Assembly (NCBI GenBank): GCA_902616075.1
Contig: CACMRK010000004.1
Location: 22,346 to 86,345, forward strand
Direction of reading: 5' to 3'
Length of the DNA stretch: 64,000 nucleotides
From: an uncultured Alphaproteobacteria bacterium
GTDB lineage: Bacteria > Pseudomonadota > Alphaproteobacteria > HIMB59 > GCA-002718135
The translations under genes and the position numbers were made by a program. The notes beneath the pieces were generated by a model. That model did no database searches. It was given only the letters and a program-made list of their open reading frames with translations, and was not told the DNA's origin. Positions 42,679 through 63,981 of this stretch are shown piece by piece (the first letter of the stretch is position 1; the number at the start of each line of letters is the position of its first letter).

Positions 42679-42682
42679 CTCT

Positions 42683-49023: not shown

Positions 49024-49025
49024 AT

Positions 49026-49050: not shown

Positions 49051-49068
49051 AAGTATAAGGGAGGACAA

Positions 49069-50697
49069 ATGAAAAATAAGAAAATAGACAAATACATTGA
49101 AGAACAGTCTTCAAAGCTAACAAAAGGGCTTATTGATAGAAGACAGTTTATGATGTCTGTCCTTGCTACTGGGGTCACGCTTCCAATTGCATTATCATTA
49201 GCAGATAAAGCAGTTGCAGCTACACCAAAAAAAGGTGGACATTTAAGATGGGGTAATAGTGCAGCAGATGCAACTGATACTCTTGATCCAGCAACTTATC
49301 AGAGCTCATTTATGCAAGCTACTGCTTGGTCATATCAGAACTGTCTAACTGTTGTTGATTCTGATCACACAATTGTTGGAGAGCTTGCTGAGTCAATTGA
49401 ATCAGATGATGCTCAAACTTGGGTATATAATCTTCGCAAAGGTGTTGAATTCCATAATGGTAAATCAATGACAGCAGAAGATGTTGTGCTCAACTACCAG
49501 TATCATATGAATCCAGATACTGCTTCGGCAGCAGGCGGACTGTTATCTCAAATTGAGACAGTTTCTGCTGATGGAAATGACAGAGTTATTTTTAAGCTAA
49601 AAGGTGCAAATGCCGATTGGCCTGCAATAACTACTGACTATCATATTATGATTAAACCAACAAAAGATGGAGTTGTTGATGCTCAATCAACGATTGGAAC
49701 TGGTCCATATATTATGGATGAATTCAATCCTGGTGTTGGTGCAAAATTTGGAAAAAGAAATCCAAATTATTTCAAAGGTGATAGTGTTGCACACTTTGAT
49801 TCAGTTGAAGTAATTGGTATTAATGATCCTGCTACTAGACAAGCAGCATTATTAAACGGTGAAATTGATTGGATGAATGGTGTTGATCTTAGAACTGCTA
49901 ATCTATTAACTAGAAATCCTAGTGTAGAAATTACAGCAGCTTCTGGTTACGCTCACTATACAGCTCCAATGCGATTGAACGTTCCACCGTTTGATAACTT
50001 TGATGTACGTATGGCAATGAAGTTTGCAATTAAAAGACAGGAAATTGTTGATAAGATTATGCTTGGATATGGTACTGTTGGTAATGATCATCCGATCTCT
50101 ACTGCTCACCCATATCACAATAGCGCTTTAGAGCAGAGAGAGTTTGATGCTGATAAAGCTGCATATCACTGGAAAAAATCTGGTGTAAGTGGACCAATTG
50201 AAATTAGTACTTCAGAGGTTCCTTATGCAGGATGTACAGATGCAACAAACTTGATTGCAGCATCTGCCCAAGAATGTGGTATCGATCTTAGAGTTAAAAA
50301 AGAGCCTGAAGATGGTTACTGGAGTAACGTATGGAACACAAAAGGTTTCAGTATGAGTTCTTGGGGTGGAAGACCTACAGAGGATATGATGTGGTCTGCT
50401 GCATTCACAGATGACACTGAATGGAACGAAGCTGCATGGGGTAATCTAGTTCAAACTGATTCAACTGTTCGTTTCAATGAACTTGTTAGATCTGCTAGAT
50501 CAGAACTTGATGCAGAAAAAAGAAAATCAATGTACTGGGAAGCACAAGCACTTTGTAACTACGATGGTGGTGCAATTGTTTATGCATTTAACCAATACGT
50601 TGGTGCTGGTTCTAAAAAACTTGCTCACGGTGAAGATGTTGCTGGTAACTGGGAAAGTGACGGTAACAAACTTTCTGAACGTTGGTGGTTTGCATAA
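49069..50697 (+). CDS. ABC transporter substrate-binding protein, family 5 (DppA/OppA-like) with twin-arginine signal peptide
   Basis: I place the start at ATG 49069 (SD GGGAGG 4 nt upstream) rather than the track's 48973. Tat motif DRRQFMMSVLATGVTLPIALSLADKAVA|A. Family-5 SBP body. Visibly higher G+C and codon bias than its neighbours. Confidence 0.85.
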   Translation: MKNKKIDKYIEEQSSKLTKGLIDRRQFMMSVLATGVTLPIALSLADKAVAATPKKGGHLRWGNSAADATDTLDPATYQSSFMQATAWSYQNCLTVVDSDHTIVGELAESIESDDAQTWVYNLRKGVEFHNGKSMTAEDVVLNYQYHMNPDTASAAGGLLSQIETVSADGNDRVIFKLKGANADWPAITTDYHIMIKPTKDGVVDAQSTIGTGPYIMDEFNPGVGAKFGKRNPNYFKGDSVAHFDSVEVIGINDPATRQAALLNGEIDWMNGVDLRTANLLTRNPSVEITAASGYAHYTAPMRLNVPPFDNFDVRMAMKFAIKRQEIVDKIMLGYGTVGNDHPISTAHPYHNSALEQREFDADKAAYHWKKSGVSGPIEISTSEVPYAGCTDATNLIAASAQECGIDLRVKKEPEDGYWSNVWNTKGFSMSSWGGRPTEDMMWSAAFTDDTEWNEAAWGNLVQTDSTVRFNELVRSARSELDAEKRKSMYWEAQALCNYDGGAIVYAFNQYVGAGSKKLAHGEDVAGNWESDGNKLSERWWFA

Positions 50698-50713
50698 AAT
50701 ATTAATTTTCTTT

Positions 50714-50735
50714 GTGGCGCATTTAAATGCGCCAC
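50714..50735 (+). terminator. GC-rich hairpin (terminator/attenuator) after the SBP gene
   Basis: The 22-nt perfect palindrome GTGGCGCATTTAAATGCGCCAC sits 16 nt after the SBP stop, followed by a T-containing tract (ACTATTTCT). The next gene starts 26 nt downstream. Confidence 0.65.
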
Positions 50736-50761
50736 ACTATTTCTACTAATCTTCCAAAAAA

Positions 50762-51685
50762 ATGTTTTTAAAAAATAAGAAATACCTCTTTGATGGAGGT
50801 TCCGGTCAAACTTTAATGGAGATGGGTTTAGAGACAACAGGCGATCTTTGGTCAGCACAAGCTTTATTAAATGAAAATAATCACCAAATGGTCTTAGAAA
50901 TGCATAAAAATTTTATAAATGCTGGATCACAATTAATAGTCACTTCAAATTTTAGTGTTAGAAGGAGGCTATTAAAAAAATATAATTTACTTGATAAATT
51001 TGAATTTGGAATAAGATCTGCTGGATCACTAGCATTAAAAGCAAAAAATGAAAGTGATAAAAAAGTTATTGTTGCTGGCTCATTGCCAAATCAAGGTAAT
51101 ACATATTCCCCAATACATTTTGAAACTGATGAAACAATGTTTAATTATTTTCATGAAATTGCAAAAATATTAAATGATTATGTCGATATATTTTACTTAG
51201 ATGTTTTGTGTTCCATCAAAGAAATAAAAATTGCTCTAGAAGCTTCAAAAGAATTTAATAAACAAGTTCTTGTAGGTGTACACTTACGTTATGATGGAAA
51301 ATTACCATCTGGAGAAAGTCTTGATGAACTTTTTGAAACTATTCAAAAATTTAATTGTTGCGGCATAGTATCAGCCTGTGTATCGCCTGAAATTGTTAAT
51401 TTGAGTATTCCTATATTTAATAAACAAAAGCTTCCTTTTGGTTATAAAATGAATTTATTTAAAGAACTGCCTACTAGTAATAAAGAAAAATTTAATTCAG
51501 AGGGCTTTGAAGGACATTATGATTATATTGATCCCGTTGAGTTACTTGGAACTCGAAATGAAGAATTTGGAGAAGATAAATATAAAAAGTTTGTTTTAAA
51601 ATCTTTAAATGAAGGTGTTACTCTAGTTGGTGGATGCTGTGAAGTGAAGCCACGACATATTGAAGCTATTAAGAATTTATTTTAA
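50762..51685 (+). CDS. homocysteine S-methyltransferase family protein (BHMT/MmuM-like)
   Basis: Pfam S-methyl_trans pattern, including an N-terminal LFDGGSGQTL and the C-terminal zinc-ligand GGCCEVKPRHI. Confidence 0.75.
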   Translation: MFLKNKKYLFDGGSGQTLMEMGLETTGDLWSAQALLNENNHQMVLEMHKNFINAGSQLIVTSNFSVRRRLLKKYNLLDKFEFGIRSAGSLALKAKNESDKKVIVAGSLPNQGNTYSPIHFETDETMFNYFHEIAKILNDYVDIFYLDVLCSIKEIKIALEASKEFNKQVLVGVHLRYDGKLPSGESLDELFETIQKFNCCGIVSACVSPEIVNLSIPIFNKQKLPFGYKMNLFKELPTSNKEKFNSEGFEGHYDYIDPVELLGTRNEEFGEDKYKKFVLKSLNEGVTLVGGCCEVKPRHIEAIKNLF

Positions 51686-51726: not shown

Positions 51727-52956
51727 ATGGGAGATTTAATTAGTAATTACAGATTTGTCGTTAAGCCAGTTATTAAGGAAACTGGTAGATCTTTGGATTT
51801 GGCTAGGCCCATGAAAATACATCCTCTCACTTATCAAGAGTTACCACTCAACCCAGAATATACTAACTACGCCGATGGAAGATTTACGCTTGAAAAATTA
51901 TCTCATGCTACAGCAGATGAAATGTATTGGAAAGCTAGACAAGAAATAATTTTAAGACATACGGGCGAGCATCCATACGAAATTTCTGGTCCGGATGCTG
52001 AAAATTTACTTCAACAAATATTTCCTAGAGATATTTCAAAAGTAAAAATAGGACGATGTTCTTATCAATTTGCTTGTTATCATGATGGAGGAATGATTTC
52101 AGATGGATTATTATTAAGACTAGAAAAAAATAAATTTTGGTTTGCACAAGGTGATGGACATTTATACAGTTGGTACAAAGCTCATTCGAAAAATTTAGAT
52201 GTTGAAATTAAAGATCCAAATGTTTGGGTAAGTCAAATACAAGGACCTAAATCTCTAAAATTGTTAGAGAAACTAATTGATCAACCATTAAAAAATAATT
52301 TTAATTACTTTGATTGGATTGAAACTTCAATTGCTTCAGAAAAAGTAATTATAAGTAGAACAGGGTTTACGAATGAACTAGGTTGGGAAATTTATTTAAG
52401 GCCAGAAAATAATTCCAAAAAAATTGGGGACTTAATACTCAGTAAGGGTGAAGAAATGGGAATGATCCTAACAGCCTCTCCAGGGTTTAGATGTAGAAGA
52501 ATTGAGGCAGGTCTCTTATCTGCAGGGAGAGATTTTACAAGAGACAGATCTCCATTTGCTGTTGGATTAGGAAAATTTATAGATTTTAATAAGGGAGATT
52601 TTATTGGAAGAGATTATTTACTAAATACAAGCAAAGATTGTTTAACATGGGGTATGAGAGTGGAAAATAGTTTTGCATTGGTTGATTCTGAAATTTCTAT
52701 TAATAATAAAAAAGTTGGAATTGTAACTTCAAGTACATGGTCGCCATTTCAAGTTTGTGGTGTTGCTATAGTTCATATGGATAAAGCAGAATTTGGACCA
52801 GATACAATAGTAGATGTTAGATGCGATGATGGTACTTTACAAAAAGGTGAAATATGTACTTTACCAATGTATGATGAGAAAGGAGAAATACAAAGAGGTT
52901 TAAAAGAAAATATTCCATCTAGCCCTATACCTTGGAAGGGTATTTCAAAAAACTAA
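51727..52956 (+). CDS. GcvT-family (aminomethyltransferase fold) protein, LigM/DesA-like putative THF-dependent demethylase
   Basis: 409 aa with GcvT-fold motifs (ISGPDAENLL, VSQIQGPKS, ISRTGFTNELGWEIY, RIEAGLLSAGRDF). The N-terminal PEYTNY...W region resembles LigM-type demethylases, from my recollection. Confidence 0.6.
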   Translation: MGDLISNYRFVVKPVIKETGRSLDLARPMKIHPLTYQELPLNPEYTNYADGRFTLEKLSHATADEMYWKARQEIILRHTGEHPYEISGPDAENLLQQIFPRDISKVKIGRCSYQFACYHDGGMISDGLLLRLEKNKFWFAQGDGHLYSWYKAHSKNLDVEIKDPNVWVSQIQGPKSLKLLEKLIDQPLKNNFNYFDWIETSIASEKVIISRTGFTNELGWEIYLRPENNSKKIGDLILSKGEEMGMILTASPGFRCRRIEAGLLSAGRDFTRDRSPFAVGLGKFIDFNKGDFIGRDYLLNTSKDCLTWGMRVENSFALVDSEISINNKKVGIVTSSTWSPFQVCGVAIVHMDKAEFGPDTIVDVRCDDGTLQKGEICTLPMYDEKGEIQRGLKENIPSSPIPWKGISKN

Positions 52957-53004: not shown

Positions 53005-54168
53005 ATGAATGATCTCATTAAACCTAGCAATAAAATCCATACAATAGATGATGCAATAAGATTATCTAAAAAAAGATTACCAAAATTAGTCTTTGACTTT
53101 ATTGATGGAGCATCAGGAGATGACAAACTTGCAGAAATTAATAGTACAGCATTAGATCAAATTAGACTTGAGCCTAAGGTTTTTAGAAATGTTGAGAATA
53201 GAAATTTAAGTAAAAAAATATTTGATTTTCATTTTGATTATCCATTTGGATTTGCACCAATGGGAATGACAAATCTTTCATGGCCTGATGCAGATAAAAT
53301 GATAGCAAAAGAAAGTGCGTATAATAATATTCCAACATGTGTTTCAATGGCTTCTAGTACTACGTTAGAAGATATGTTTACTTTTTCAGAAGGTCATTCG
53401 TGGATGCAAATATATATTTTTCAAAGTGAAGAATTTATTATGGAATTATTAAAAAGAGCAGAAAGTATTGGATACAAGGTCTTGATCCTCACTGTTGATG
53501 TTCCAATTCTTTCAAGAAGAGCTAGAGATGATAGAAATGGCTTTGGTTATCCATTTAAAATTGGCCCAAAACAATTTTTAGATTTTGCACTACATCCTCA
53601 ATGGAGTTTAACAACTTTGTTTAAAGGCGCTCCACAACCAATGAATTATGTTACCTCTAAAAGTGGTGATCAAATTTTTAGACGAAAAGAAAGTAGAGGA
53701 GCAACTGATTGGAGTACTCTAAAAAGGGTTCGAGAGGCTTGGAAAGGAAAATTAATAATCAAAGGAGTAATGAATTCTGAAGATGCTTTGAAAATTAAAG
53801 AGGCTGGTGCTGATGCAATTCAAGTATCAAATCATGGTGGAAGGCAATTAGATAGTGCTACTGCTTCTATTAATGCTTTGCCATTAATACGAAAAGCTTT
53901 GGGAGACGATTTTCCAATACTTTTTGATAGTGGCATTAGAAGTGGTAGTGATATTTTACGAGCATTAGCTCTGGGAGCTAACTTTGTTATGTTTGGCAGA
54001 CCTTTAATGTATGCTATTGGAGCAGATGGTGCAAGAGGTCTTAGAAGAATCATTAACCTAATTAAAGAAGAGTTAAGTACAAATCTTGGCTTAGTGGGAT
54101 TAACCGATATAAATGAAGTTGATAAAAAAATTATAGCAGAGAAATTTTTTAAGGATATAAAGTACTAA
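53005..54168 (+). CDS. FMN-dependent alpha-hydroxy acid dehydrogenase/oxidase (LldD/glycolate oxidase/MdlB family)
   Basis: TIM-barrel FMN motifs (LTVDVPILSRRARD, SNHGGRQLD, GIRSGSDILRALALGA). Confidence 0.85.
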   Translation: MNDLIKPSNKIHTIDDAIRLSKKRLPKLVFDFIDGASGDDKLAEINSTALDQIRLEPKVFRNVENRNLSKKIFDFHFDYPFGFAPMGMTNLSWPDADKMIAKESAYNNIPTCVSMASSTTLEDMFTFSEGHSWMQIYIFQSEEFIMELLKRAESIGYKVLILTVDVPILSRRARDDRNGFGYPFKIGPKQFLDFALHPQWSLTTLFKGAPQPMNYVTSKSGDQIFRRKESRGATDWSTLKRVREAWKGKLIIKGVMNSEDALKIKEAGADAIQVSNHGGRQLDSATASINALPLIRKALGDDFPILFDSGIRSGSDILRALALGANFVMFGRPLMYAIGADGARGLRRIINLIKEELSTNLGLVGLTDINEVDKKIIAEKFFKDIKY

Positions 54169-54169
54169 G

Positions 54170-55912
54170 ATGGGAGATAAAAAGATTAGAGGTGGGGCAT
54201 TAGTTGCAAGAGCTCTTAGAGACAAAGGTATTGATAATGTTTTTACACTTTCTGGAGGTTTTTGTAATCCGGCACTTGAAGGATTTATGGAGTGTCAAAT
54301 TAATGTAATTAATTGTCCTCATGAACAAATTGCTGGTCATTTAGCTGATGGTCATACCAGAATATCAAGAAAACCATCCGTTTGTATTGTGGGGCCCGAA
54401 GGTTTTGCAAATGCAGTACCCTCAATGATGGAAGCTTGGGGTGAAAGATCACCTGTTATTTTTATAACTGGATCAAGTAGTTTAAAAAGACAAGGAGCAG
54501 GCGGTTTTAAGGAAATAGATGATGTATCTATTGCAGCACCGTTAACAAAATACAGTGCAAGTATAACAGATGGCAACAGAATAAGAGAGTTCGTAGATAA
54601 AGCATATAGAATTGCAACAAATGGCTATCCTGGTGCAGTACATTTAAGTGTACCAGTAGATATAATGTTTTCATCATTTGCAGATGATGCAGGTTTAGAA
54701 GAAAGACCTTTTACTCATCAAAAGAAACCTTTAGCAAAAGCTTGGCCTGATCCTGAGAGTTTAAATGAAATATTTGATCTAGCAATTAGTGCACAAAAAC
54801 CTGTTTTTATAGGAGGGCATGGAGTTTGGTGGTCTAGTGCGGAACAAAAATTAGAACAAGCTGGGTTTGAATTAAATATTCCAATATTTAATATACCATA
54901 CCACCAAAAACTTTTAGGTGAAGAGGCAAATACATATATGGGTCTTGCAGATATTCATCAATACCCTCCATCAAAAATGGCTCTTCATGAATCAGATTTG
55001 GTTCTTATGATTGGTGCACGTCTTGATAATCAAATGAATTTTGGTAATCCTCCACTTTTTCCAAAAAGCACAAAGCTTGTTTGTATTAATGGATCACATG
55101 AAGAAATAGAATTAAATAGAGCTGCAGATATTAATTTACTTTGTGACCCTGGAGTCTTTTTGGATAAACTCTTAGAATTAAAGAAAAATAGTAAATGGAA
55201 ATTAAATAATGAATGGTTTGATAAGAATAAAAAAGAGAAAAAAAATTGGATTGATAAAACATTAGATGATTTAAATAAAGAAACTGAAGAGGCTAAAAAA
55301 AAAGGTGGAAAAATTCATCCTCTTCAGTTAGCTTTAGATGTTCAAGAAGTATTAACTGAAAATGATTGGTTAGTTATTGATGGTGGAAACACACATTTCT
55401 GGTCTGAGATTGCAATTAATATTGCTGGATCAAAAGGTAAAAAACTTGGAGGAATATTACATCCAGGTACTTTTAGTATGTTAGGTGTTGGAGTTCCTTT
55501 TGCAGTATCAGCGAAAAATCTTAATCCTAAATCTAATGTTGTTTTAATAAGTGGAGATGGTGCATTTTTATCTGGCGGATTATCAATTGAAGCTGCATTT
55601 CAAGAAAAAAAACCTATTGTTGTAGTTATCGATAACAATGGAGGTCTTGACTGTATTTCTCAACAACAAGAAAGGTTGTTTGAAAGTGGGAAACACTTTG
55701 CAACTGATTTTAGAGATATTCCATTTCATTCAATTTTTGAGGGTTTTGGAGGACATGGAGAATTAGTTACTAAAAGAGAAGATTTAGGCCCCGCTTTAAA
55801 AAGAGCGTTAAAAAGTGGTAAAACTGCATGTGTAAATGTTAAGGCTAAAGGTGTTATAAGTCCAATAGTTGCTGCAGTTAGTGATAAAAGAGATAAAGCG
55901 TCTATAGAGTAG
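54170..55912 (+). CDS. thiamine-diphosphate-dependent enzyme (ALS/BFD/Oxc superfamily; 2-oxoacid decarboxylase or 2-hydroxyacyl-CoA lyase-like)
   Basis: N-terminal PYR domain with catalytic HEQ, a GGFKEID motif, and the ThDP-binding motif GDGAFLSGG...NNGG. Starts 1 nt after the FMN enzyme gene. Confidence 0.8.
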   Translation: MGDKKIRGGALVARALRDKGIDNVFTLSGGFCNPALEGFMECQINVINCPHEQIAGHLADGHTRISRKPSVCIVGPEGFANAVPSMMEAWGERSPVIFITGSSSLKRQGAGGFKEIDDVSIAAPLTKYSASITDGNRIREFVDKAYRIATNGYPGAVHLSVPVDIMFSSFADDAGLEERPFTHQKKPLAKAWPDPESLNEIFDLAISAQKPVFIGGHGVWWSSAEQKLEQAGFELNIPIFNIPYHQKLLGEEANTYMGLADIHQYPPSKMALHESDLVLMIGARLDNQMNFGNPPLFPKSTKLVCINGSHEEIELNRAADINLLCDPGVFLDKLLELKKNSKWKLNNEWFDKNKKEKKNWIDKTLDDLNKETEEAKKKGGKIHPLQLALDVQEVLTENDWLVIDGGNTHFWSEIAINIAGSKGKKLGGILHPGTFSMLGVGVPFAVSAKNLNPKSNVVLISGDGAFLSGGLSIEAAFQEKKPIVVVIDNNGGLDCISQQQERLFESGKHFATDFRDIPFHSIFEGFGGHGELVTKREDLGPALKRALKSGKTACVNVKAKGVISPIVAAVSDKRDKASIE

Positions 55913-55915
55913 GTT

Positions 55916-56251
55916 ATGGCAATTTTTTCTACACATTTACTAAACTCAATAGATGGCACGCATGCGAGTGATGTAGAAATTGTTATTTATAAAGTAAATA
56001 ATAATAACAAAGTTGTATTTCTAGAAGATAAAACAGATAGTTCTGGAAGAATGCTTAAAGAATTTGAATTAACGAAAGAAGATTGTGAAAGTGATTATGA
56101 AATGATAATTAATTCTGGTAAATATTTTAGAAATACTAGTGAAATAATTAATTCAATCAGTGTTAAATTTAAAATGAAAGATCCTCTTAAAAAATATCAC
56201 ATACCTTTAATTGTTTCTCCAAATGGATACTCAATATGGTGGTCTAAATAA
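55916..56251 (+). CDS. transthyretin-like protein (HIU-hydrolase fold) lacking the C-terminal YRGS signature
   Basis: 111 aa aligning to the HIUase pattern: STHLLN (cf. THILD), SSGR (cf. DGR) and KYHIPLIVSPNGY (cf. HYHIPLLLSPFGY). It ends in SIWWSK instead of (T/V)YRGS. Confidence 0.7.
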   Translation: MAIFSTHLLNSIDGTHASDVEIVIYKVNNNNKVVFLEDKTDSSGRMLKEFELTKEDCESDYEMIINSGKYFRNTSEIINSISVKFKMKDPLKKYHIPLIVSPNGYSIWWSK

Positions 56252-56252
56252 A

Positions 56253-57374
56253 ATGAGTAATTCAGGATTAAACATGTCTAGACGCATTAGGAGGACTCCC
56301 TATACCGAGAAAGTAATTGAGGCTGGTGTAAGTGGTTTTACTGTAGTTAATCATATGCTTCTTCCAAAATCATATAAAGCAACAGTTGAAGAAGATTATT
56401 GGCACTTATCTAAAAATACTCAAATTTGGGATGTTTCATGTCAACGACAGGTTCAAATAATAGGAGAAGATGCTACAGAATTAATACAACTCATGTCTCC
56501 AAGGTCAATAAAAGATATGCCTATTGGTAAATGTTACTATTATCCAATGATAGATGAAAATGCAGGGATGATAAATGATCCTGTACTTTTAAAATTAAGT
56601 GAAAATAAATATTGGCTATCAGTTGCAGATTCAGATGTCCTTCTTTGGTCAAAAGGATTGGCTGTAGGAAGAAATTTTAAAGTTGATATTATAGAGCCAG
56701 ATATTTATCCCTTAGCAATTCAAGGTCCAAAATCTGAAAAATTAATGTCATCAATATTTGGAGAAAAAATTAAAAAATTAAAATTCTTTCATTTTTCTTT
56801 TTTTGAATTTGAAGGAACAAAACAGATAATTGCAAGATCAGGATATAGCAAACAAGATGGTTTTGAGATTTACCTTAAAGGTTTTAGTTTAGGAAAAAAA
56901 CTTTGGGAAACTATTTGGGAAGCAGGAAAAGATTTTAATATTTCACCTGGATGTCCAAATTTAATTGATAGAATAGAAGGTGGTTTATTATCCTATGGTA
57001 ATGAATTTACTTTAGAAAATAATCCAATTGAATGTGGATTTGATAATTATTGTAACAATTTATCTCATGATTTCATTGGAAAAAATGCATTAAAAAAAAT
57101 ATTAAAAAATGGAATAGAAAAAAAAATAAAAGGAATTACTTTTGATGGGTCCCCGACTCCTTCGTGTACAATACCTTTTCCTGTATACTCAAAAAATAGA
57201 TTTCAAATTGGTAATATCACCTCTGGTATTTATTCACCATTTTTAAAAACCAATATTGGGCTATCAATGGTTGATAGAGACTATTGGAATGATGGGCAGG
57301 ATGTTATCGTATTAACACCAGACAACATTGAGAGAAAAGGTAAAGTGTGCTCACTACCTTTTAATTATTCTTAA
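56253..57374 (+). CDS. dmdA: DMSP demethylase-like GcvT-family protein (DmdA-like)
   Basis: Start set at ATG 56253 (MSNSGLNMSRRIRRTPYT), 1 nt after the previous stop. DmdA-like blocks from my recollection of SAR11 DmdA are NHMLLP, EEDYWHL, QIWDVSCQRQVQIIG, GKCYYYPMIDENAGMINDPVLLKL, ARSGYSKQDGFEIY and PGCPNLIDRIEGGLLSYGNEF. Confidence 0.65.
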   Translation: MSNSGLNMSRRIRRTPYTEKVIEAGVSGFTVVNHMLLPKSYKATVEEDYWHLSKNTQIWDVSCQRQVQIIGEDATELIQLMSPRSIKDMPIGKCYYYPMIDENAGMINDPVLLKLSENKYWLSVADSDVLLWSKGLAVGRNFKVDIIEPDIYPLAIQGPKSEKLMSSIFGEKIKKLKFFHFSFFEFEGTKQIIARSGYSKQDGFEIYLKGFSLGKKLWETIWEAGKDFNISPGCPNLIDRIEGGLLSYGNEFTLENNPIECGFDNYCNNLSHDFIGKNALKKILKNGIEKKIKGITFDGSPTPSCTIPFPVYSKNRFQIGNITSGIYSPFLKTNIGLSMVDRDYWNDGQDVIVLTPDNIERKGKVCSLPFNYS

Positions 57375-57375
57375 A

Positions 57376-57822
57376 ATGAGTCATTCAATCGAATTAAAGT
57401 GGGAATTAGGAGATCAAAAACTCGAATTTGGAAAATACTTAACTGATCACACAGTAATGCTTAATGAAAATGTATCTATTGATGCAGGATCATCTCCAGA
57501 TTATGGAGGAAGCGAAACTAATATTAATCCAGAGCAAAAACTAGCTGCAGCTGTAAGTAGTTGTTTTATGATGACGTTTTTAGCTTTAGCTGCAAAAATG
57601 AAATGGCCAGTTATTAATTACAAAGATAAAGCAATTTCGTATTTAGGAAAAAATGCAGAGGGGAGAATGTACGTTAACAAAATAGAGCTAAATCCAGCTA
57701 TAGTATTTGAAGATAATTTTAATATTTCTGATGAAGAAATGAAAAAGATGAAAGAGAGATCACATAAGTATTGTTTTATAGCTAATTCACTATCCAAAGA
57801 TGTTGAAATTCAAATCAATTAA
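57376..57822 (+). CDS. OsmC/Ohr family protein
   Basis: Start set at ATG 57376 (MSHSIELKW). OsmC-fold pattern with two Cys (AAVSSCFMMTF, HKYCFIANS). Confidence 0.7.
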   Translation: MSHSIELKWELGDQKLEFGKYLTDHTVMLNENVSIDAGSSPDYGGSETNINPEQKLAAAVSSCFMMTFLALAAKMKWPVINYKDKAISYLGKNAEGRMYVNKIELNPAIVFEDNFNISDEEMKKMKERSHKYCFIANSLSKDVEIQIN

Positions 57823-58614
57823 ATGAATTTTAATCTAATATTAAACGAAAAAAATAATAATATTTTTAATATTATTCTTAATGACCAGAGAAACCAAAAT
57901 ACTTTAAGCGAAAACATGATCAATGAATTAACATCAGCACTAGACATCGCTGATAAAGATAATGATGTAAAAGTAATTATTTTATCATCAAACGGTAATA
58001 TTTTTTGTGCAGGACATAATTTAAAAGATTTAAATTCACAAAGATTGCAAAATGACAAAGGTGAAAGCTATTTTAAAAAAATATTTCAAATGTGCTCTCA
58101 ACTTATGCTGAAAATTAATAAAAATAATAAACCAGTTATAGCTATGGTTGATGGTATTGCTACTGCAGCAGGCTGTCAGTTAATTTCTAGCTGTGATTTA
58201 GCTTACTCAAGTAACAGAGCAAAATACGCAACCCCTGGTGTTAATATTGGATTATTTTGTTCTACACCAATGGTTCCATTATCAAGAACTGTAGGGAAAA
58301 AGCAAGCAATGGAAATGCTTCTCACTGGAGATCTTATAGATGCAAATAAAGCATTAAGGATTGGTTTAATAAATGATGTCTTTGAAGAAGATAGTTTAAA
58401 AGAAAATGTATTTCAAATTGCTAAAAAAATATCATCTAAATCTTCTAATACTATTAAAATTGGTAAAGAAGCTTTTTACAAACAAAAAGATATGAATTTA
58501 GAAGATGCATATACTTTTACTTCAAATGTAATGACGGAAAATATGCTAAATGATGATTCCAAGGAAGGTATTGAAGCTTTTTTAGAAAAAAGAGAGCCAA
58601 ACTGGAAAGAATAA
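57823..58614 (+). CDS. enoyl-CoA hydratase/isomerase (crotonase) family protein, ECHDC3-like
   Basis: Crotonase motifs (FCAGHNLKDL, VIAMVDGIATAAGCQL, EGIEAFLEKREPNW). It has 0 nt spacing to the OsmC-like gene. Confidence 0.8.
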   Translation: MNFNLILNEKNNNIFNIILNDQRNQNTLSENMINELTSALDIADKDNDVKVIILSSNGNIFCAGHNLKDLNSQRLQNDKGESYFKKIFQMCSQLMLKINKNNKPVIAMVDGIATAAGCQLISSCDLAYSSNRAKYATPGVNIGLFCSTPMVPLSRTVGKKQAMEMLLTGDLIDANKALRIGLINDVFEEDSLKENVFQIAKKISSKSSNTIKIGKEAFYKQKDMNLEDAYTFTSNVMTENMLNDDSKEGIEAFLEKREPNWKE

Positions 58615-58621
58615 TTACTTC

Positions 58622-60094
58622 TTAAAATGGGTTTGGTTGTGATGGATTGGTTGCTAACCATGTAGATTTAGTTTGCATGTAACTTTGCATTCCCTCCCAT
58701 CCATTTTCACGACCGTATCCTGATTGCTTAAAACCTCCAACTGGAGATTGAGTAGAAGCATTAAAATAATTATTTATATAAACAGTTCCAGCCTCTATCT
58801 TATCTGCTAAACGTATAGCTTTATTAGTATCCTTAGTCCAAATACCTGCCGCAAGTCCATAAATAGTATCGTTTGCAATTTTAATTACTTCATCTTCATT
58901 ATCCCAAGATTGTATTGAGGCGACAGGTCCAAATACTTCATTTTGAGCTAAATCATCTTCATTTGGAACATTATCAAAAATAGTTGGTCCAATATAGTAC
59001 CCTTCAGATTTTTGTTCTTTTCTTCCATCAATTAATAATTTTAAACCTCTTTTTTCAGCCGCTTCTATCTTAGATAAAATAAAATCATATTGCTCTTTAT
59101 TTGCTATAGGTCCTATTTGTGTTGCAACATCATTTGGGTGACCAACTTTAGCCTTTTTAACAACTTCTAATAAATTATGAGTAAATTTATCTTTTATATC
59201 TTTATGCACTAGTATCCTTGATCCTGAAATACAACTATGGCCTGAAACTGGAAATATACCTGAAACAACTCCATTTACTGATAAAGTTAAATCAGCATCT
59301 TTAAATATAATTTGTGGTGATTTACCCCCTAACTCCATAATAATAGGTTTAACATTTTTTGATGCACTTAAACTTGCTGCACTCCCCCCTTTTGTTCCAC
59401 CTGTAAAACTTATCATTCTAACATCTTGGTGTTCAATAAGAGGTGCTCCGGTTGTAGGACCAAAACCAGTAACAACATTAATCAAACCTTCTGGAAGATC
59501 CGCTTCTTCTAAAATTTTCATTAACTCTAATGTAGAGCATGATGCTCTTTCTGAAGGTTTAATTACAACAGTATTACCTGCTGCTATTGCCGGTGCTAAT
59601 TTCCAGATTAATGTTCCAATTGGTGAGTTCCAAGGTAGAATGAGTGCAACAACTCCAAATGGTTCCCATTTTAAATAATTATGCATATTTGGAACTTCGG
59701 AAGGTATCAGTCTACCTTCATACTTGTCACACATGCCTGCATAATAATAAAAACTCTCAGTCTGCCAGCTGGTTAAAGAAGGAGTGATATTTTTTGGAAG
59801 TTTGCCGTTATCTTTAGTTTCTATTTGCCCAATACGTTCTGCATTTTTAGCAATAATATCTCCAATTCTAGTTAACGTTCTCCCTCTTTCTGCTGGATGC
59901 ATTTTACCATAAGGACCATCATAATAAGCCTGTTTAGCAGATGATACCGCGAGATTAATATCTTTTTCATTACAATCAGGAACCTTTGCCCATACTTTAC
60001 CTATAGATGGATCCTCACTTTCAAAATATTTTTCAGAAGAAGGGTCATGCCATTTATTTCCTGCATAAAATTTGTAGGTTTGAGTTTCAGACAT
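58622..60094 (-). CDS. NAD(P)-dependent aldehyde dehydrogenase (betaine-aldehyde dehydrogenase-like)
   Basis: ALDH motifs ELGGKSP, FTGGTKGG, a catalytic Cys context (GHSCISGSRILV) and EVFGPV. Confidence 0.88.
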   Translation of the reverse strand: MSETQTYKFYAGNKWHDPSSEKYFESEDPSIGKVWAKVPDCNEKDINLAVSSAKQAYYDGPYGKMHPAERGRTLTRIGDIIAKNAERIGQIETKDNGKLPKNITPSLTSWQTESFYYYAGMCDKYEGRLIPSEVPNMHNYLKWEPFGVVALILPWNSPIGTLIWKLAPAIAAGNTVVIKPSERASCSTLELMKILEEADLPEGLINVVTGFGPTTGAPLIEHQDVRMISFTGGTKGGSAASLSASKNVKPIIMELGGKSPQIIFKDADLTLSVNGVVSGIFPVSGHSCISGSRILVHKDIKDKFTHNLLEVVKKAKVGHPNDVATQIGPIANKEQYDFILSKIEAAEKRGLKLLIDGRKEQKSEGYYIGPTIFDNVPNEDDLAQNEVFGPVASIQSWDNEDEVIKIANDTIYGLAAGIWTKDTNKAIRLADKIEAGTVYINNYFNASTQSPVGGFKQSGYGRENGWEGMQSYMQTKSTWLATNPSQPNPF

Positions 60095-60143: not shown

Positions 60144-61781
60144 TTAATTTTTTAATATCAAATCTGATGCTTTTTCTGCTAACATAATTACAGATGCATT
60201 TATATTTCCACTTATCATATCTGGAAAAGAAGAAGCATCTACTACTCTCAGATTGTCTATTCCTCTAACTTTAAGCTGATTATCAAGTACAGCCATTTTG
60301 TTATTACTTGAACCCATTGCGCAAGTAGATGCAGGATGATGACCTGTTTGTACATGATTTCTAACTGACTCTTTTAAATCTTGGTCACTTTTGATTTTTT
60401 TTCCTGGAAGTAATTCTTCCGAAACAATTTTAGCTAAACTGGGTTTTGACAATACTTCTCTTGTATGCTTCATCCCTTCTATCATATCTTCCATATCAGA
60501 TGGATCGATGAACCAATTTGGATTTATATTAAGTTCATCATTTGGATTTGAGCTTTTAAGTTTTACACTTCCTGTGCTCTTTGGTCTTAGTAAATTAATT
60601 TGAAAGTGTAATCCTGGAAAAGCTTTTTTACCTCTAGAAAAAAATAATGAACCAAAATTTAATAAATTGTCTAAACTCATAGACCAATTATCTTTTTCTT
60701 CTTTAAAACACATAGGTGTCATGAATACTTGTATTTCAGGCATATCTTTTTCTCTTATTGCATGAAATAGATTTGTTGACCAAAAAGGAGCTGCGGCTAA
60801 TCCCTGTTTAAATAAAATATATTTTAATCCCACAATAATAGCTCTATCGATCCTTTGATATTTAGAGAAACTTAAATTGTTATTTTGAAAAGCCCAATTC
60901 ATTGGCATAACAGGATGATCGTGAAGGTTTTCACCTACTCCAGGTAATTTAATTAATAATTCTATATTTTTTTCTTTTAAATGTGACTCTGGACCAATTC
61001 CTGACAACATTAAGCATTTGGGACTACCGAATGCCCCTAAAGATAATATTACCTCTGATGATGCATAAACTTCACCATTTGATAAAAGCAATCCTTTAGC
61101 TTTATTTTTCTCAATTAAAATTTTTATTACAGATGTATTTTTATAAATTGTTAAGTTGTTAGGTTTAAATTTCAAATAAGCTTCTGCAGATGATTGTCTT
61201 TTTCCATTCCATACTTTAACATCATATCGGCCTACTCCATTTAGATTGCCATTATAAAAATCATCATTAATTTCTGCCCCAGCCTCAACACATGCATCAA
61301 TAAATGCTTTATCGATAGAATTGTAGTTACCAGCTGGTGTAAGTTTTAAAGGACCTGAATGTGAGTGAAATTCATTTTTTTCTCTATGAAAAGCTGAAGC
61401 AGATCTTTTGAAATATGGTAATACATCATTATATGACCAACCCTCTAAGCCCTTTTGTCTCCACCTATTAAAATCACCTGGAGCACCTCTCATGTAAATC
61501 ATACCATTTAAAAGAGAAGATCCTCCTAGTCCTTTACCTCTAGGATATAAAATTTTTCTGTTATTTAAAGAAGGTTGAGGTATTGACTCAAAACCCCAAT
61601 CAAATTTAGGGTTTCCAAAAATGTATCCGTTACCACCAGGCATTTGAGTGAATAAACTTTTTCCTGACCCCCCTGCTTCTATTAGTAATACCTTTATATC
61701 TTTATTTTCAGATAATCTTGAGGCTAAAGTACAGCCAGCAGAACCTCCGCCTGCAATTATATAGTCAAATGTTTTTTTCAT
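60144..61781 (-). CDS. GMC family oxidoreductase (choline dehydrogenase-like), copy 2
   Basis: DYIIAGGGSAGCTLASRLS, GGSSLLNGM, HHPASTCAMG and VVDASSFP. Directly upstream (same strand) of the ALDH gene, in a betA-betB-like arrangement. Confidence 0.85.
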   Translation of the reverse strand: MKKTFDYIIAGGGSAGCTLASRLSENKDIKVLLIEAGGSGKSLFTQMPGGNGYIFGNPKFDWGFESIPQPSLNNRKILYPRGKGLGGSSLLNGMIYMRGAPGDFNRWRQKGLEGWSYNDVLPYFKRSASAFHREKNEFHSHSGPLKLTPAGNYNSIDKAFIDACVEAGAEINDDFYNGNLNGVGRYDVKVWNGKRQSSAEAYLKFKPNNLTIYKNTSVIKILIEKNKAKGLLLSNGEVYASSEVILSLGAFGSPKCLMLSGIGPESHLKEKNIELLIKLPGVGENLHDHPVMPMNWAFQNNNLSFSKYQRIDRAIIVGLKYILFKQGLAAAPFWSTNLFHAIREKDMPEIQVFMTPMCFKEEKDNWSMSLDNLLNFGSLFFSRGKKAFPGLHFQINLLRPKSTGSVKLKSSNPNDELNINPNWFIDPSDMEDMIEGMKHTREVLSKPSLAKIVSEELLPGKKIKSDQDLKESVRNHVQTGHHPASTCAMGSSNNKMAVLDNQLKVRGIDNLRVVDASSFPDMISGNINASVIMLAEKASDLILKN

Positions 61782-61840: not shown

Positions 61841-62659
61841 ATGAAAAATTACGAAGATTGGATTGGAAAGAAAATTTCAAGAAGTGAGATTATTACTCCT
61901 CGATTAGTTGATCATTTAAAAAAAACAATCGATCAAAAATGTTTAAGTGATCAAACTGTACCTGAGGGAATTTTTTTATGCTTATGCGCAGATGTAGCTT
62001 CGATAAATGATCTAGATAAAGATGGAAATACAAAATTAGGAATTTTCTTACCTGAGTTACCTTATAAAATTAGAATGTGGGCTGGTGGTAAAATAAAAAT
62101 ATTTGATGAATTTGAAATTGGATCTGAAATTAAAAAAAATTCAACAATTTCAAGTATTGAATTTAAAGAAGGTAGATCAGGCAAACTATGTTTTGTTAAT
62201 ATTAATAATGAATATTTAAATAAAAATAAATTAATAATATCAGAAATTCAAACTGCTGTTTATAGAGAAAAAATAAATAAAAACTCCATTACTCCTAAAA
62301 TAAAAGATGAACTAAAATTAATTGATAAAGTAGAAATTTTTAGTTCATCAACTTTGCTATTCAGATATTCTGCTTTAACTTTTAATGGACATAAGATTCA
62401 TTATGATAATGATTATACAAAAAATTATGAGGGCCATATGGGATTATTAGTCCATGCGCCTCTTCAAGCAACTTATCTTTTAAATCTTGCAAGAAAAAAT
62501 GAGATTGAGTTCAATTCTTTTGAATATAAAGCTACAGCTCCTCTTGTATATAACCATAATTTTTTTATAGAAATTGGTGAAAATCAAGATGATGAAATTA
62601 TTGGAAGGATTCTTAATGAAAAAAAAGAAATTACAATGATTGCAAAATATAAAAAATGA
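61841..62659 (+). CDS. MaoC-N/FAS1-like dehydratase family protein (HTD2 / mesaconyl-C4-CoA hydratase-like)
   Basis: The LFRYSALTFNGHKIHYD...EG..GLLVHAPL motif is characteristic, by my recollection, of the HTD2/Meh hydratase family; 272 aa. Confidence 0.55.
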   Translation: MKNYEDWIGKKISRSEIITPRLVDHLKKTIDQKCLSDQTVPEGIFLCLCADVASINDLDKDGNTKLGIFLPELPYKIRMWAGGKIKIFDEFEIGSEIKKNSTISSIEFKEGRSGKLCFVNINNEYLNKNKLIISEIQTAVYREKINKNSITPKIKDELKLIDKVEIFSSSTLLFRYSALTFNGHKIHYDNDYTKNYEGHMGLLVHAPLQATYLLNLARKNEIEFNSFEYKATAPLVYNHNFFIEIGENQDDEIIGRILNEKKEITMIAKYKK

Positions 62660-63981
62660 GTTTTCATAAAAAATTTTGTAATTGGGCATCACAAAAAAAA
62701 ATTAATATCAATAAGGTAACTTATAAAAGAGCAGAAAATGCATTCATAGATACCCTAGCTTGTATATTATCAGGTGTTAAAGAAAAACAATCAAAGGTTG
62801 CTTTAAAATATTGTTTAGAAAATAATAATTCAGGAAAAATTATGGTTTTTGGAGGAGGAAAAAAATTATCTATTTCTGCAGCGTGTTTTTTACATGGTGT
62901 CAGATCAGCATCTATAGACTTTGATGATTACGAATACGTTGCAGGATCTCATCCTAGTGCGCCAATTTTTTCAGCCCTTATATCTATTGCTCAAATGAAA
63001 AACATCTCAATTGAGGAAATATATCAGGGGTGGTCAGTAGGATATGAATTAATAATAAAATTAGGACAAGCACTTAGCTATGATCATTATTATAAAGGAT
63101 GGCATTCAGCAAATACAATAGGCGTGATTGGAACTGCTGCAGCAGTATCTAAAGTGTTAAAATTAAATGCAGATCAAATGGCAAATGCAATTTCTATTGC
63201 AACAAGTTTTTCATCTGGATTAAAAGAGCAATTCGGCACAGATATAAAAGCTTTTCATATAGGGTTTGCTTCTCAAGCAGGGGTACAGTCAGCCTTACTT
63301 GCAAAAAATGGAGGGACAGCTAATCAAGATATTTGGAATATTGAGAGAGGATTTATTGAATTATATGGTAGTAAATTTTCTAAAAAATTAAATAATAATT
63401 TTAAAAGATCAGATTTAGGAAATGCAATAATTAAATTTCCAAATTTCATTAAGTTTTGGCCAGTTTGTAGTTATTCACAAAGAGTAATACAAGGAGGATT
63501 AATTTTAAATAAAAAAATTTTTATAAAAAAAAATATTAAATCTATTTCAATTGAGTTTCCAGAACCTTGGTCCAGAGTATCAAAATTTCATATACCTAAA
63601 AATTCCACTGAAGCTAGATTTTCATTGAGTTATTGTTTAGCAACTGCTCTCATTAATGGTAAATTTGATTTAAGTAGTTTAAATATTTCCAAAAATAAAA
63701 AAAGTTTAAATTTGGTTAAAAAAATTAAACTACTCAAGTACAAAGTGCCAAATAATTTTGAAGATTATGACCCTAAGTATCCTGACATAATTAAAGTAAT
63801 AATGAATGATGGAAGTATATTGATTGAAAAAATATCACATATTAAAGGAGGAAAAAATAACCCTTTAAAAGATGAAGATATTGATAATAAATTTTTAATG
63901 TGTGGAGGTAAAAAAAATATTTTAAATAAAATAAGAAATCAAAAATATAAGAAGAAAAATTTAAAAGAAATAATTTTTTAA
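62656..63981 (+). CDS. MmgE/PrpD family protein
   Basis: PrpD-family N-terminal pattern (AFIDTLACILSGV, HGVRSASIDFDD, SHPSAPIFSAL, GWHSANTIGVIGTAAA). Its ATG overlaps the previous stop (ATGA). Confidence 0.8.
   Translation: MSFHKKFCNWASQKKININKVTYKRAENAFIDTLACILSGVKEKQSKVALKYCLENNNSGKIMVFGGGKKLSISAACFLHGVRSASIDFDDYEYVAGSHPSAPIFSALISIAQMKNISIEEIYQGWSVGYELIIKLGQALSYDHYYKGWHSANTIGVIGTAAAVSKVLKLNADQMANAISIATSFSSGLKEQFGTDIKAFHIGFASQAGVQSALLAKNGGTANQDIWNIERGFIELYGSKFSKKLNNNFKRSDLGNAIIKFPNFIKFWPVCSYSQRVIQGGLILNKKIFIKKNIKSISIEFPEPWSRVSKFHIPKNSTEARFSLSYCLATALINGKFDLSSLNISKNKKSLNLVKKIKLLKYKVPNNFEDYDPKYPDIIKVIMNDGSILIEKISHIKGGKNNPLKDEDIDNKFLMCGGKKNILNKIRNQKYKKKNLKEIIF

Follow-up and report, generated by a model that had tools for sequence, protein, structure and literature searches.

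A conserved FMN dehydrogenase-ThDP enzyme gene cassette of SAR11 and other marine Proteobacteria, with a possible role in the use of methylated onium 2-hydroxy acids

Introduction

In the mandelate pathway, the enzymes MdlB, MdlC, and MdlD convert a 2-hydroxyacid to a 2-oxoacid, the 2-oxoacid to an aldehyde, and the aldehyde to an acid. Here, we describe a gene cluster that resembles MdlB-MdlC of Pseudomonas putida, in that a flavin mononucleotide (FMN)-dependent dehydrogenase, predicted to be membrane-associated, is followed by a thiamine diphosphate (ThDP) enzyme, and the order of hydroxy acid, oxo acid, and ThDP chemistry is kept. The cluster is located in a 64,000-nucleotide stretch of DNA from an uncultured alphaproteobacterium (contig CACMRK010000004.1, positions 22,346 to 86,345; hereafter, the window, to which all coordinates refer unless a locus is named). 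It consists of four genes, which we call the cassette, encoding the FMN-dependent dehydrogenase (FMN_dh), the ThDP enzyme, a transthyretin-like protein, and a DmdA-family aminomethyltransferase (AMT). Unlike in the mandelate pathway, the ThDP enzyme of the cassette does not resemble benzoylformate decarboxylase (BFD), an aldehyde dehydrogenase (ALDH) is neither conserved nor co-transcribed with it, and two further conserved genes have no counterpart. Instead of an aromatic acid, its substrate is probably an onium or organosulfur acid.

The other described relatives of the cassette belong to different pathways. The ThDP enzyme shares the three-domain fold, the catalytic Glu, and the GDG...NN motif with 2-hydroxyacyl-CoA lyases (HACL; AcHACL 7pt1 and RuHACL 8vza) and oxalyl-CoA decarboxylase (Oxc). 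The transthyretin-like protein has the fold, the length, and the His/Arg/His residues of 5-hydroxyisourate hydrolases (HIUases) and transthyretin-like proteins (TLPs), such as Escherichia coli TLP (2g2n) and PucM. In the SAR11 cluster dmdC-dmdB-(hydrolase)-dmdA, as in the cassette, a DmdA-family methyltransferase dependent on tetrahydrofolate (THF) is co-operonic with possible product-processing enzymes; however, those of the dmd operon are a CoA ligase and an acyl-CoA dehydrogenase, whereas those of the cassette are FMN_dh, the ThDP enzyme, and the transthyretin-like protein. Full-text literature searches found no description of this gene cluster. We regard the cassette as a module for hydroxy-acid to oxo-acid to ThDP chemistry that has new conserved partners and whose ThDP enzyme belongs to an orphan family.

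A previous analysis of the window, made from the nucleotide sequence only (the sequence-only reading), had interpreted FMN_dh, the ThDP enzyme, and a nearby ALDH as a mandelate-like trio. The genes located between the ThDP gene and a crotonase (enoyl-CoA hydratase, ECH) gene, which encode the transthyretin-like protein, the AMT, and an OsmC-like protein, were not mentioned in it, nor was the place of the ALDH gene behind a GMC oxidoreductase gene in a unit of its own.

Results

The coordinates, spacings, and motifs that the sequence-only reading gave for the FMN_dh, ThDP, and ALDH open reading frames (ORFs) agreed exactly with those found here, including the 1-nt and 7-nt gaps, the HEQ glutamate, and the GDGAF...NNGG motif. 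The first cassette gene, for a putative FMN-dependent (S)-2-hydroxy-acid dehydrogenase, is located at 53005-54168 on the plus strand (387 aa; PF01070, E = 9e-119). It is followed on the same strand by the ThDP enzyme gene at 54170-55912 (580 aa, three TPP_enzyme domains), the gene for the transthyretin/HIUase-fold protein at 55916-56251 (PF00576, E = 2e-19), and the AMT gene at 56253-57374, whose start ATG at 56253 lies 1 nt past the transthyretin-like stop codon. Together with the OsmC-like and crotonase genes, they form a series of six plus-strand genes with intergenic gaps of 1, 3, 1, 1, and 0 nt. The G+C content of the window is ~29%.

We then compared the cassette with 80 related genome loci by tblastn and all-against-all ORF clustering. 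These loci come from single-cell and metagenome-assembled genomes labeled as Pelagibacterales or uncultured Alphaproteobacteria. Because the ThDP gene of the window is 96-99% identical to copies in 31 of the 80 loci so labeled, we identify the host as a SAR11 bacterium. The order FMN_dh-ThDP-transthyretin-AMT was whole in 77 of the 80 SAR11 loci, the remaining three being interrupted by contig ends. The gap between FMN_dh and ThDP was 0-6 nt in every locus reaching that far, and that between ThDP and the transthyretin-like gene was 1-9 nt. Furthermore, the same four genes in the same order were present outside SAR11 in Arenicellales, in Pelagibius sp., and in one high-GC genome. In these three lineages, the ThDP enzyme was the most similar to its window counterpart (68-72% identity), followed by the AMT (51-58%), FMN_dh (42-52%), and the transthyretin-like protein (29-38%). 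Since the 0-6-nt gap recurs across the related loci and in three other bacterial lineages, the adjacency of FMN_dh and ThDP is far beyond chance. Thus, FMN_dh, ThDP, transthyretin-like, and AMT genes form a conserved, translationally coupled unit. It is widespread within SAR11 and also occurs in other marine Proteobacteria. The cassette occurred in at least 557 contig stretches of a species-representative genome collection, and the protein clusters of three cassette genes each contained hundreds to thousands of metagenomic sequences.

The surroundings of the cassette differ by lineage. In Arenicellales (L166, L169-171), a D-2-hydroxy-acid dehydrogenase gene lies directly upstream, which would let both enantiomers feed one 2-oxo acid, and genes of the SDR, GST, and TauD families lie downstream. 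In Pelagibius sp. Alg239-R121 (L168), a convergent carboxylate transporter of the tripartite ATP-independent periplasmic (TRAP) type lies by the cassette, with a gene for an MttB-family methyltransferase near it. The high-GC genome (L172) shows the order MttB, family-5 ATP-binding cassette (ABC) transporter (same strand, directly upstream), cassette, and then enolase-superfamily and DAO genes. A further contig of 38% GC (L165) carries an NAD-type epimerase/SDR gene in place of FMN_dh. As a side observation, the region directly 3' of the cassette in L172 (12371-19740) encodes two MR_MLE proteins, a DAO-family oxidase, a DHDPS-family protein, and an amino-acid ABC transporter. This set resembles published catabolic clusters for hydroxyproline betaine and proline betaine. 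The MttB-family gene lies upstream.

Within SAR11, ALDH, GMC oxidoreductase, OsmC, and crotonase genes accompany the cassette just in the clade of the window (24-28 of the 80 loci). In Pelagibacteraceae, whose ThDP enzymes are 81-88% identical to that of the window, the operon consists of GcvT2 (a second GcvT-family aminomethyltransferase) or a homocysteine S-methyltransferase-family protein (HMT), a family-S51 peptidase (121 bits), the cassette, and a thiolase, with an Opp/Dpp-type ABC transporter transcribed divergently. Such a transporter adjoins the cassette in most SAR11 loci. In clade I, a ~12-kb block comprising the Opp/Dpp transporter, GcvT2, the S51 peptidase, and the cassette is located between the thiolase gene and a gene for a 430-aa protein (L060, 1-14389). 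In cassette-less contigs (L115/L116/L126, 371-2904), the latter two genes are adjacent, ~125 nt apart, and the insertion site is ~5 kb from canonical dmdA. Because its flanking genes are adjacent in these contigs, the block of transporter plus cassette behaves as an insertion or deletion, that is, as a presence/absence polymorphism.

This distribution bears on the trio proposed in the sequence-only reading, in which FMN_dh, a ThDP decarboxylase, and the ALDH would shorten an ordinary non-aromatic 2-hydroxy acid by one carbon. If this were so, the transthyretin-like protein and AMT would be unrelated passengers. The FMN enzyme is indeed most like mandelate dehydrogenase, the ThDP enzyme retains both its catalytic Glu and the ThDP motif, and the stop codon of the ALDH gene (58622-60094; 490 aa, class 1/2 NAD(P) type, PF00171, E = 2e-157) lies 7 nt from the end of the crotonase gene at 58614, the end of the operon. 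However, the ALDH gene is on the minus strand in a convergent GMC-ALDH unit, where it comes second after the gene for a choline-dehydrogenase-like (betA-like) GMC oxidoreductase (60144-61781, minus strand; PF00732 and PF05199; PRK02106, 515.5 bits against a cut-off of 605). It adjoined the cassette in 27 of the 80 loci, all of them close relatives of the window, and was absent beside the cassette in other lineages. The ALDH is, therefore, not a conserved cassette partner. It is of a generic class 1/2 type: its score with the betaine aldehyde dehydrogenase (BADH) model TIGR01804 was 456.3 bits against 668.6, and its best PDB matches were ALDH1A1/ALDH2, about equal to BADH. Moreover, the tight spacing of the transthyretin-like and AMT genes (1-3 nt) and their conservation across four bacterial orders show that they are no passengers but the conserved partners in place of the ALDH. 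The 60 best PDB matches to the ThDP enzyme also contained no BFD and comprised HACL/Oxc, benzaldehyde lyase (BAL)/formolase, acetohydroxy-acid synthase (AHAS)/ALS, pyruvate oxidase, and Gcl. The invariant succession of dehydrogenase and ThDP enzyme thus fits a hydroxy to oxo to ThDP sequence, whereas the trio with its ALDH is unlikely.

The FMN enzyme matched PF01070 over its full length (profile positions 2-349 of 350). Residues 10-373 aligned to full-length P. putida (S)-mandelate dehydrogenase (MDH; 6bfg) with E = 1e-68, including the membrane-binding segment that is absent from the soluble chimera 1huv, and MDH Gly81 was kept. The motifs QIY, TVD, SRRARD, IIKGV, and SNHGGRQ were all present. 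The proposed LldD/MdlB-family membership was borne out by this end-to-end alignment, and we assign the protein, by sequence, as an MdlB/LldD-type dehydrogenase. Canonical L-lactate dehydrogenase LldD was ruled out as an identity by scores under the cut-offs (NF033901, 225.8 against 550 bits; PRK11197, 269.5 against 376 bits). We take the membrane-binding segment to mark a quinone-linked enzyme. Because this segment is absent from soluble oxidases, a quinone-linked dehydrogenase appears more likely than an oxidase. In glycolate oxidase (GOX) numbering, we take the catalytic set to be Tyr129, Asp157, Arg164, Lys230, His254, and Arg257, with Tyr24 binding the carboxylate. All SAR11 copies have Phe at the Tyr24 position, and those of other lineages have either Phe or Ala (Ala in Arenicellales). 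The position of the size-limiting Trp108 is Ala. Since the pocket is mandelate-dehydrogenase-like in these respects, it suggests a substrate larger than glycolate or lactate. The substrate is probably neither aromatic nor lactate or glycolate.

Next, we analyzed the ThDP enzyme. It keeps the cofactor-activating Glu52 in the sequence CPHEQ and a ThDP/Mg motif that reads SGDGAF...IDNNGG. Every NCBIfam model scored under its cut-off. The top model was PRK05858 (270 bits against 587), and the scores were 242.9 against 600 for HACL (NF058623), 204.1 against 557 and 188.7 against 739 for Oxc (PRK09259 and TIGR03254), 233.1 against 538 for AHAS (TIGR00118), 206 against 510 for AlsS, and 182.6 against 676.4 and 190.4 against 620 for Xsc (TIGR03457 and PRK07525). 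The nearest solved structures were 2-hydroxyacyl-CoA lyases/synthases of the HACL/Oxc type (E = 6e-55), followed by BAL/formolase and then AHAS. In a search of 1.84 billion cluster representatives, identities fell in steps of 68%, 48%, and 35%, and then to 34% or less. The signature motifs GGFKE, LADxHQYPPS, and DGGNTHFWSE occurred in just four 50%-identity clusters among these representatives. By these sequence comparisons, the ThDP enzyme belongs to a narrow orphan family.

An identity as an acetohydroxy-acid synthase (IlvB/IlvI/AlsS) was rejected. In addition to the scores under the cut-offs, the F-Q-E motif of AHAS reads G-F-K-E, so that Gln is replaced by Lys, and the gene 3' of ThDP encodes the transthyretin-like protein, not an ACT-domain small subunit.

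The CoA-binding residues were then compared with those of AcHACL, in which Q255, R273, S274, R362, and R417 contact CoA and Gln128 in the active site binds the thioester carbonyl (PMC8760513). In the window enzyme, the corresponding residues are P243 for Q255, S268 for R273, K269 for the adjacent S274, W360 for R362, E413 for R417, and Lys114 for Gln128. Each reference residue fell on its expected letter in the mapping, although the alignment is at ~30% identity and loop positions are less certain. The replacements hold through all lineages of the family, whereas Arg417 and Gln128 are kept in the outgroups P0137 and P0139 and in both HACL structures. Unlike HACL/Oxc, the cassette enzyme also has its own LADxHQYPPS insertion. 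Trp and Glu at the positions of the CoA arginines were considered as an onium-binding cage, and this idea was dropped, as these positions are located at the channel entrance in HACL.

These replacements count against the alternative raised in the sequence-only reading, that is, an HACL/Oxc-type enzyme working on CoA esters with the crotonase or a thiolase, as in alpha-oxidation. Its best solved relatives are of that type, a crotonase, thiolase, or thioesterase gene is found nearby depending on the lineage, and a family-III CoA transferase gene (CoA_transf_3) lies ~5 kb upstream of the cassette in Arenicellales. However, the HACL and Oxc scores are far under their cut-offs, all five CoA contacts and Gln128 are replaced family-wide, the crotonase was present in 27 of the 80 loci, and no CoA ligase or transferase is conserved: none was found in the SAR11 operons, and that of Arenicellales is the sole case. 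We therefore consider CoA-ester chemistry very unlikely. Because the CoA-contact residues are absent, Gln128 is Lys, and no CoA-activating enzyme is conserved, the substrate of the ThDP enzyme is most likely a free carbonyl compound, namely a 2-oxo acid from the preceding dehydrogenase, rather than an acyl-CoA. The enzyme is probably a free 2-oxo-acid decarboxylase or lyase, though it may be a carboligase.

The only two other members of the ThDP family were observed in high-GC bacteria, in both cases without the transthyretin-like gene and AMT. P0123 (L081-L083) lies in the order SDR-ThDP-4HBT thioesterase-split transketolase, with an NMT1/sulfonate-type ABC transporter. P0129 (L084) comes after an OpuAC-type ABC transporter, a GMC oxidoreductase, and a molybdopterin oxidoreductase.

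An Xsc-like elimination was also considered, in which a 3-substituted lactate (3-sulfolactate, 3-methylthiolactate, or a 3-onium lactate) would be oxidized and decarboxylated with expulsion of the beta-substituent, giving acetyl-ThDP and then acetate, acetyl phosphate, or acetyl-CoA. The homologues beside a dehydrogenase with sulfonate/NMT1- or OpuAC-type transporters, and beside a thioesterase, would fit this chemistry, as would the thiolase or crotonase genes 3' of the cassette in SAR11 and the TauD-family dioxygenase of Arenicellales, which could produce the 2-hydroxy acid. It would also account for a specialized and highly conserved ThDP enzyme. Nevertheless, the Xsc models scored 183-190 bits against cut-offs of 620-676, the cassette contains no phosphotransacetylase or sulfite-handling gene, and the AMT and transthyretin-like protein are left unaccounted for. 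We also know of no natural 3-onium lactate. This elimination is thus an outside chance.

The transthyretin-like protein keeps the catalytic His/Arg/His of E. coli TLP 2g2n (STH.., ..GR, YH.P). Its score with the HIUase equivalog TIGR02962 was 70.6 bits against 87.45, and its C-terminus reads ..YSIWWSK, so that the HIUase-defining YRGS is replaced. The WWS ending was found in 79 of the 80 SAR11 copies (WWP in one) and in L165, L166, and L168, whereas L172 has WYS. Unlike HIUases, it thus ends in a near-invariant WWS(K/E), and no other purine or ureide gene lies nearby. A genuine 5-hydroxyisourate hydrolase was therefore rejected because of the score under the cut-off and the lack of YRGS. The gene co-occurs with the AMT; the ThDP homologues P0123 and P0129 have neither. 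The protein may be a hydrolase, a tautomerase, or a binding partner.

The AMT scored 531.6 bits with the NCBIfam DmdA equivalog NF009133, above the cut-off of 410. The cassette copies of other lineages scored 473-580, and canonical DmdA scored 638. The window AMT is 48-49% identical to crystallized P. ubique DmdA (3TFH). Full-length SAR11 cassette AMTs are 45-51% identical to DmdA, with values up to 58% on contig-truncated fragments. The identity is 40% in L165 and 43-48% in three other lineages. In the genus Pelagibacter, cassette AMTs are 45-48% identical to DmdA, although a flanking thiolase reaches 77% identity between these genome types. Because of this low AMT identity alongside the 77% of its flanking gene, the cassette AMT is by sequence a lineage distinct from DmdA rather than a diverged orthologue. 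A residue specific for contact with dimethylsulfoniopropionate (DMSP) has been described as W171 (PMC7487153). This residue is Trp197 in 3TFH; it is Tyr (ARSGYS) in every cassette copy, and Trp (ARSGWS) in every canonical copy examined. Canonical DmdA (82-100% identical to 3TFH) never had an FMN_dh, ThDP, or transthyretin-like gene as a neighbor. In 10-kb flanks on long contigs, the canonical gene lies in the order dmdC-dmdB-hydrolase-dmdA beside asd, sdh, and suc genes, which is the same arrangement as in the published dmd operon of HTCC1062 (PMC3160333). Public pipelines name the cassette AMT a DMSP demethylase, and its putative membership derives from the sequence score.

A paralogue, SAR11_1265, was reportedly found beside metF by Sun and colleagues in 2011. 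The cassette AMT could not be equated with it, as the annotated flanking genes, among which metF would have to be, are the sole gene families that recur near the cassette in the 80 loci.

These data also allow us to weigh ordinary metabolism, in which an L-lactate dehydrogenase, an enzyme of the acetolactate synthase type, a true hydroxyisourate hydrolase, and a true DMSP demethylase would merely share an operon. These are the names given by public pipelines, and the AMT does clear the DmdA equivalog cut-off. Conversely, the LldD, AHAS, and HIUase models all scored under their cut-offs as given above, YRGS is missing, and canonical dmdA is found elsewhere, with dmdB and dmdC. The invariant order and the 0-6-nt FMN_dh-ThDP spacing across orders further argue for one pathway. 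Such a coincidence of unrelated functions is, in our view, scarcely credible.

Another alternative concerns glycolate. FMN_dh would oxidize glycolate to glyoxylate, the ThDP enzyme would convert this to hydroxymethyl-ThDP or formaldehyde plus CO2, and the GcvT-family protein would form 5,10-methylene-THF. The FMN_dh family includes glycolate oxidases, the nearest ThDP relatives (HACL, Oxc, and formolase/BAL) handle C1/C2 units, and GcvT-fold domains capture formaldehyde in other enzymes. The neighboring genes encode methyl or C1 enzymes, and the ThDP enzyme is extremely conserved, as would suit a small universal substrate. However, the mandelate-dehydrogenase-like pocket of FMN_dh argues for a larger substrate, the AMT is nearest to methyl-transferring DmdA and not to GcvT, and SAR11 bacteria have been reported with GlcDEF for glycolate. 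We consider glycolate cleavage improbable.

Regarding the remaining genes of the operon, the OsmC/Ohr-like gene (57376-57822, plus strand; PF02566) follows the AMT after a 1-nt gap. It was present in 28 of the 80 loci and coupled in the clade of the window only. The crotonase gene (57823-58614, plus strand; PF00378; PRK08139, 369.8 bits against 313) is the last plus-strand gene of the operon. The coupling of OsmC and a methyltransferase recalls the osmC-bhmT-ordL cluster of HTCC1062, which is controlled by an S-adenosylmethionine (SAM) riboswitch (PMC5069961); no riboswitch was detected here. An Rfam scan of the whole window gave one tRNA only, with no SAM or other riboswitch upstream of the operon.

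Upstream of the cassette, two genes encode methyl-transfer proteins. GcvT2 (51727-52956, plus strand; PF01571 and PF08669) scored ~180 bits with both the DmdA and the trimethylamine N-oxide (TMAO)-demethylase models, under both cut-offs, and is 27% identical to DmdA. By sequence, it is a third type of SAR11 aminomethyltransferase. It lies mostly upstream of the cassette in SAR11, and HMT takes its place in some genomes (L079). HMT (50762-51685, plus strand; PF02574, E = 1.6e-40) is a divergent member of its family, with NCBIfam scores of ~87 bits against cut-offs of 215-338 and a C-terminal GGCCE zinc-site motif; it was present in 28 of the 80 loci.

Further upstream, a family-5 (Opp/Dpp/NikA-type) solute-binding protein is encoded at 48973-50697 on the plus strand. 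Its weak PDB and NCBIfam matches were to NikA/AppA/GsiB-type proteins alone, far under the cut-offs. An Opp/Dpp-type ABC transporter (45352-48834, minus strand), comprising a fused double ATPase (45352-46965) and permeases (46952-47872 and 47869-48834) recognized from ORFs and translations, is divergent from the cassette operon. A scan for terminator-like structures found a perfect 10-bp G+C-rich hairpin, TGTGGCGCAT..ATGCGCCACA, at 50713-50736 on the plus strand, directly 3' of the binding-protein gene and 5' of the HMT gene, without a clear T-tract. This hairpin may be a candidate attenuator or mRNA stabilizer and could set the ratio of binding protein to enzymes. Site counts in promoter and terminator scans were not above those in shuffled sequence. 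The best promoter-like site of the region lay upstream of the GMC gene (61824-61796, minus strand).

Several other gene groups were observed in the window. A carnitine-type module at 37602-40934 consists of a 4HBT thioesterase (minus strand) that matches the thioesterase domain of carnitine 3-dehydrogenase, a beta-keto-acid cleavage enzyme (BKACE), a 3HCDH protein resembling L-carnitine dehydrogenase (343.6 bits against 414), and then an MDR protein resembling enone/curcumin reductases. It may act on carnitine or an analogue, e.g., a sulfonium hydroxy acid. The adjoining region at 40935-45066 encodes an ScfR-type regulator (HTH, M78 peptidase-like, and ScfRs domains), a second GMC oxidoreductase, whose 705 bits exceed the choline-dehydrogenase subfamily cut-off of 605, and an SDR protein. 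This region, together with that up to 64 kb, looks like an island of onium-compound catabolism. A polyamine/agmatine block at 28564-37009 contains genes for a DAO-family oxidoreductase, a glutamine-synthetase-like protein of the gamma-glutamyl-polyamine synthetase type, a Pot-type ABC transporter, a CN-hydrolase resembling N-carbamoylputrescine amidase, and an agmatine-deiminase-family protein. Lastly, at 61841-63981, the gene for a 272-aa protein with a faint FAS1/MaoC-like dehydratase match overlaps by 4 nt an MmgE/PrpD-family gene, whose product scored 49 bits against the PrpD cut-off of 950. This pair is kept beside the GMC-ALDH unit in the clade of the window.

Discussion

We tentatively propose that the cassette serves to degrade or salvage a 2-hydroxy acid that is free (not a CoA ester) and carries a DMSP-like methylated onium group, through folate-dependent demethylation, oxidation, and decarboxylation. 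We hold this to be possible, though short of probable. From the gene context, we infer that 4-dimethylsulfonio-2-hydroxybutyrate (DMSHB), an intermediate of DMSP synthesis in algae and bacteria, is the best single candidate. DMSHB was chosen because it is the one well-known sulfonium 2-hydroxy acid in nature (PMC13360808) and its products would join the known sulfur metabolism of SAR11.

In this scheme, the substrate would be taken up by the adjacent ABC or TRAP transporter. The AMT would transfer an S-methyl group to THF, and HMT or an MttB-family enzyme would carry out a related demethylation in some clades. The membrane-associated FMN dehydrogenase would oxidize the 2-hydroxy acid to the 2-oxo acid, passing electrons to the respiratory chain, and the ThDP enzyme would then produce an aldehyde one carbon shorter, that is, methional or DMSP-aldehyde. 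Any available ALDH, unlinked or clade-specific, could oxidize the aldehyde to methylmercaptopropionate (MMPA) or DMSP, which would enter the known demethylation route. The intermediates would be methylthio-hydroxybutyrate and methylthio-oxobutyrate, the order of demethylation and oxidation being left free.

The logic of a dehydrogenase followed by the ThDP enzyme is suggested by the exchange of dehydrogenase type while the ThDP enzyme stays, as with the NAD-type epimerase/SDR of L165 and the SDR beside P0123. The TRAP carboxylate transporter paired with the Pelagibius cassette points to a free acid. The onium or methyl theme is consistent with the AMT passing the DmdA model, HMT or GcvT2 upstream in SAR11, MttB beside the cassette in two other lineages, and the OpuAC transporter and GMC oxidoreductase by P0129. 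The carnitine-type BKACE module and the two choline-dehydrogenase-like genes of the window fit the same theme. That the AMT and the other cassette members act in one pathway is argued by analogy, because canonical dmdA is co-operonic with enzymes that process its product. The proposed reaction would resemble the conversion of DMSHB to DMSP by DsyD, or by the plant route via S-methylmethionine (SMM) and DMSP-aldehyde, in the loss of C1 from a four-carbon sulfonium 2-hydroxy or 2-oxo acid, which leaves a three-carbon sulfonium or thioether, with a BADH-like ALDH finishing as in plants. In contrast to that step, the cassette would run in a catabolic direction with unrelated enzymes, an FMN dehydrogenase and a ThDP decarboxylase.

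Several observations weigh against this proposal. The transthyretin-like protein has no role in it, even though it is as conserved in position as the other cassette members, and no ALDH is conserved with the cassette. The S51 peptidase in the clade-I operon and the Opp/Dpp-type transporter hint at a peptide-like or conjugated substrate, unlike DMSHB. The transporters beside the cassette are also not orthologous between clades, the binding protein of the window being ~30% identical to that of clade I. CoA-related genes recur nearby, namely the crotonase in the window, the thiolase in clade I, and the 4HBT thioesterase by P0123. Furthermore, a ThDP enzyme that stays 68-72% identical across bacterial classes could suit a small universal substrate over an exotic osmolyte, and a sulfur auxotroph that decarboxylated 4-methylthio-2-oxobutyrate would lose a direct precursor of methionine. 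The substrate itself is assigned from gene context. The probability left over by this and the alternatives weighed above goes to something else.

The handling of methylated sulfur and nitrogen osmolytes by SAR11, which are among the most abundant bacteria of the ocean, shapes marine fluxes of dimethyl sulfide (DMS) and methanethiol. The public names of all four cassette genes (L-lactate dehydrogenase, acetolactate synthase, hydroxyisourate hydrolase, and DMSP demethylase) appear unsupported or doubtful. Pelagibius sp. Alg239-R121, whose strain name suggests a cultured isolate, carries the cassette. If the AMT does not act on DMSP, dmdA-based surveys would over-count the potential for DMSP demethylation, and a new route for a phytoplankton compound would have to be defined. 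The cassette might represent an undescribed pathway for a sulfonium or betaine hydroxy acid released by phytoplankton, with a new ThDP family and a repurposed transthyretin fold, which we offer as a tentative view; a variant of it would be the ThDP/folate cleavage of glycolate, in which a C2 acid is converted to CO2 and methylene-THF. If such a pathway exists, much of what is counted as dmdA in SAR11 and other marine bacteria would belong to it and act on a substrate other than DMSP.

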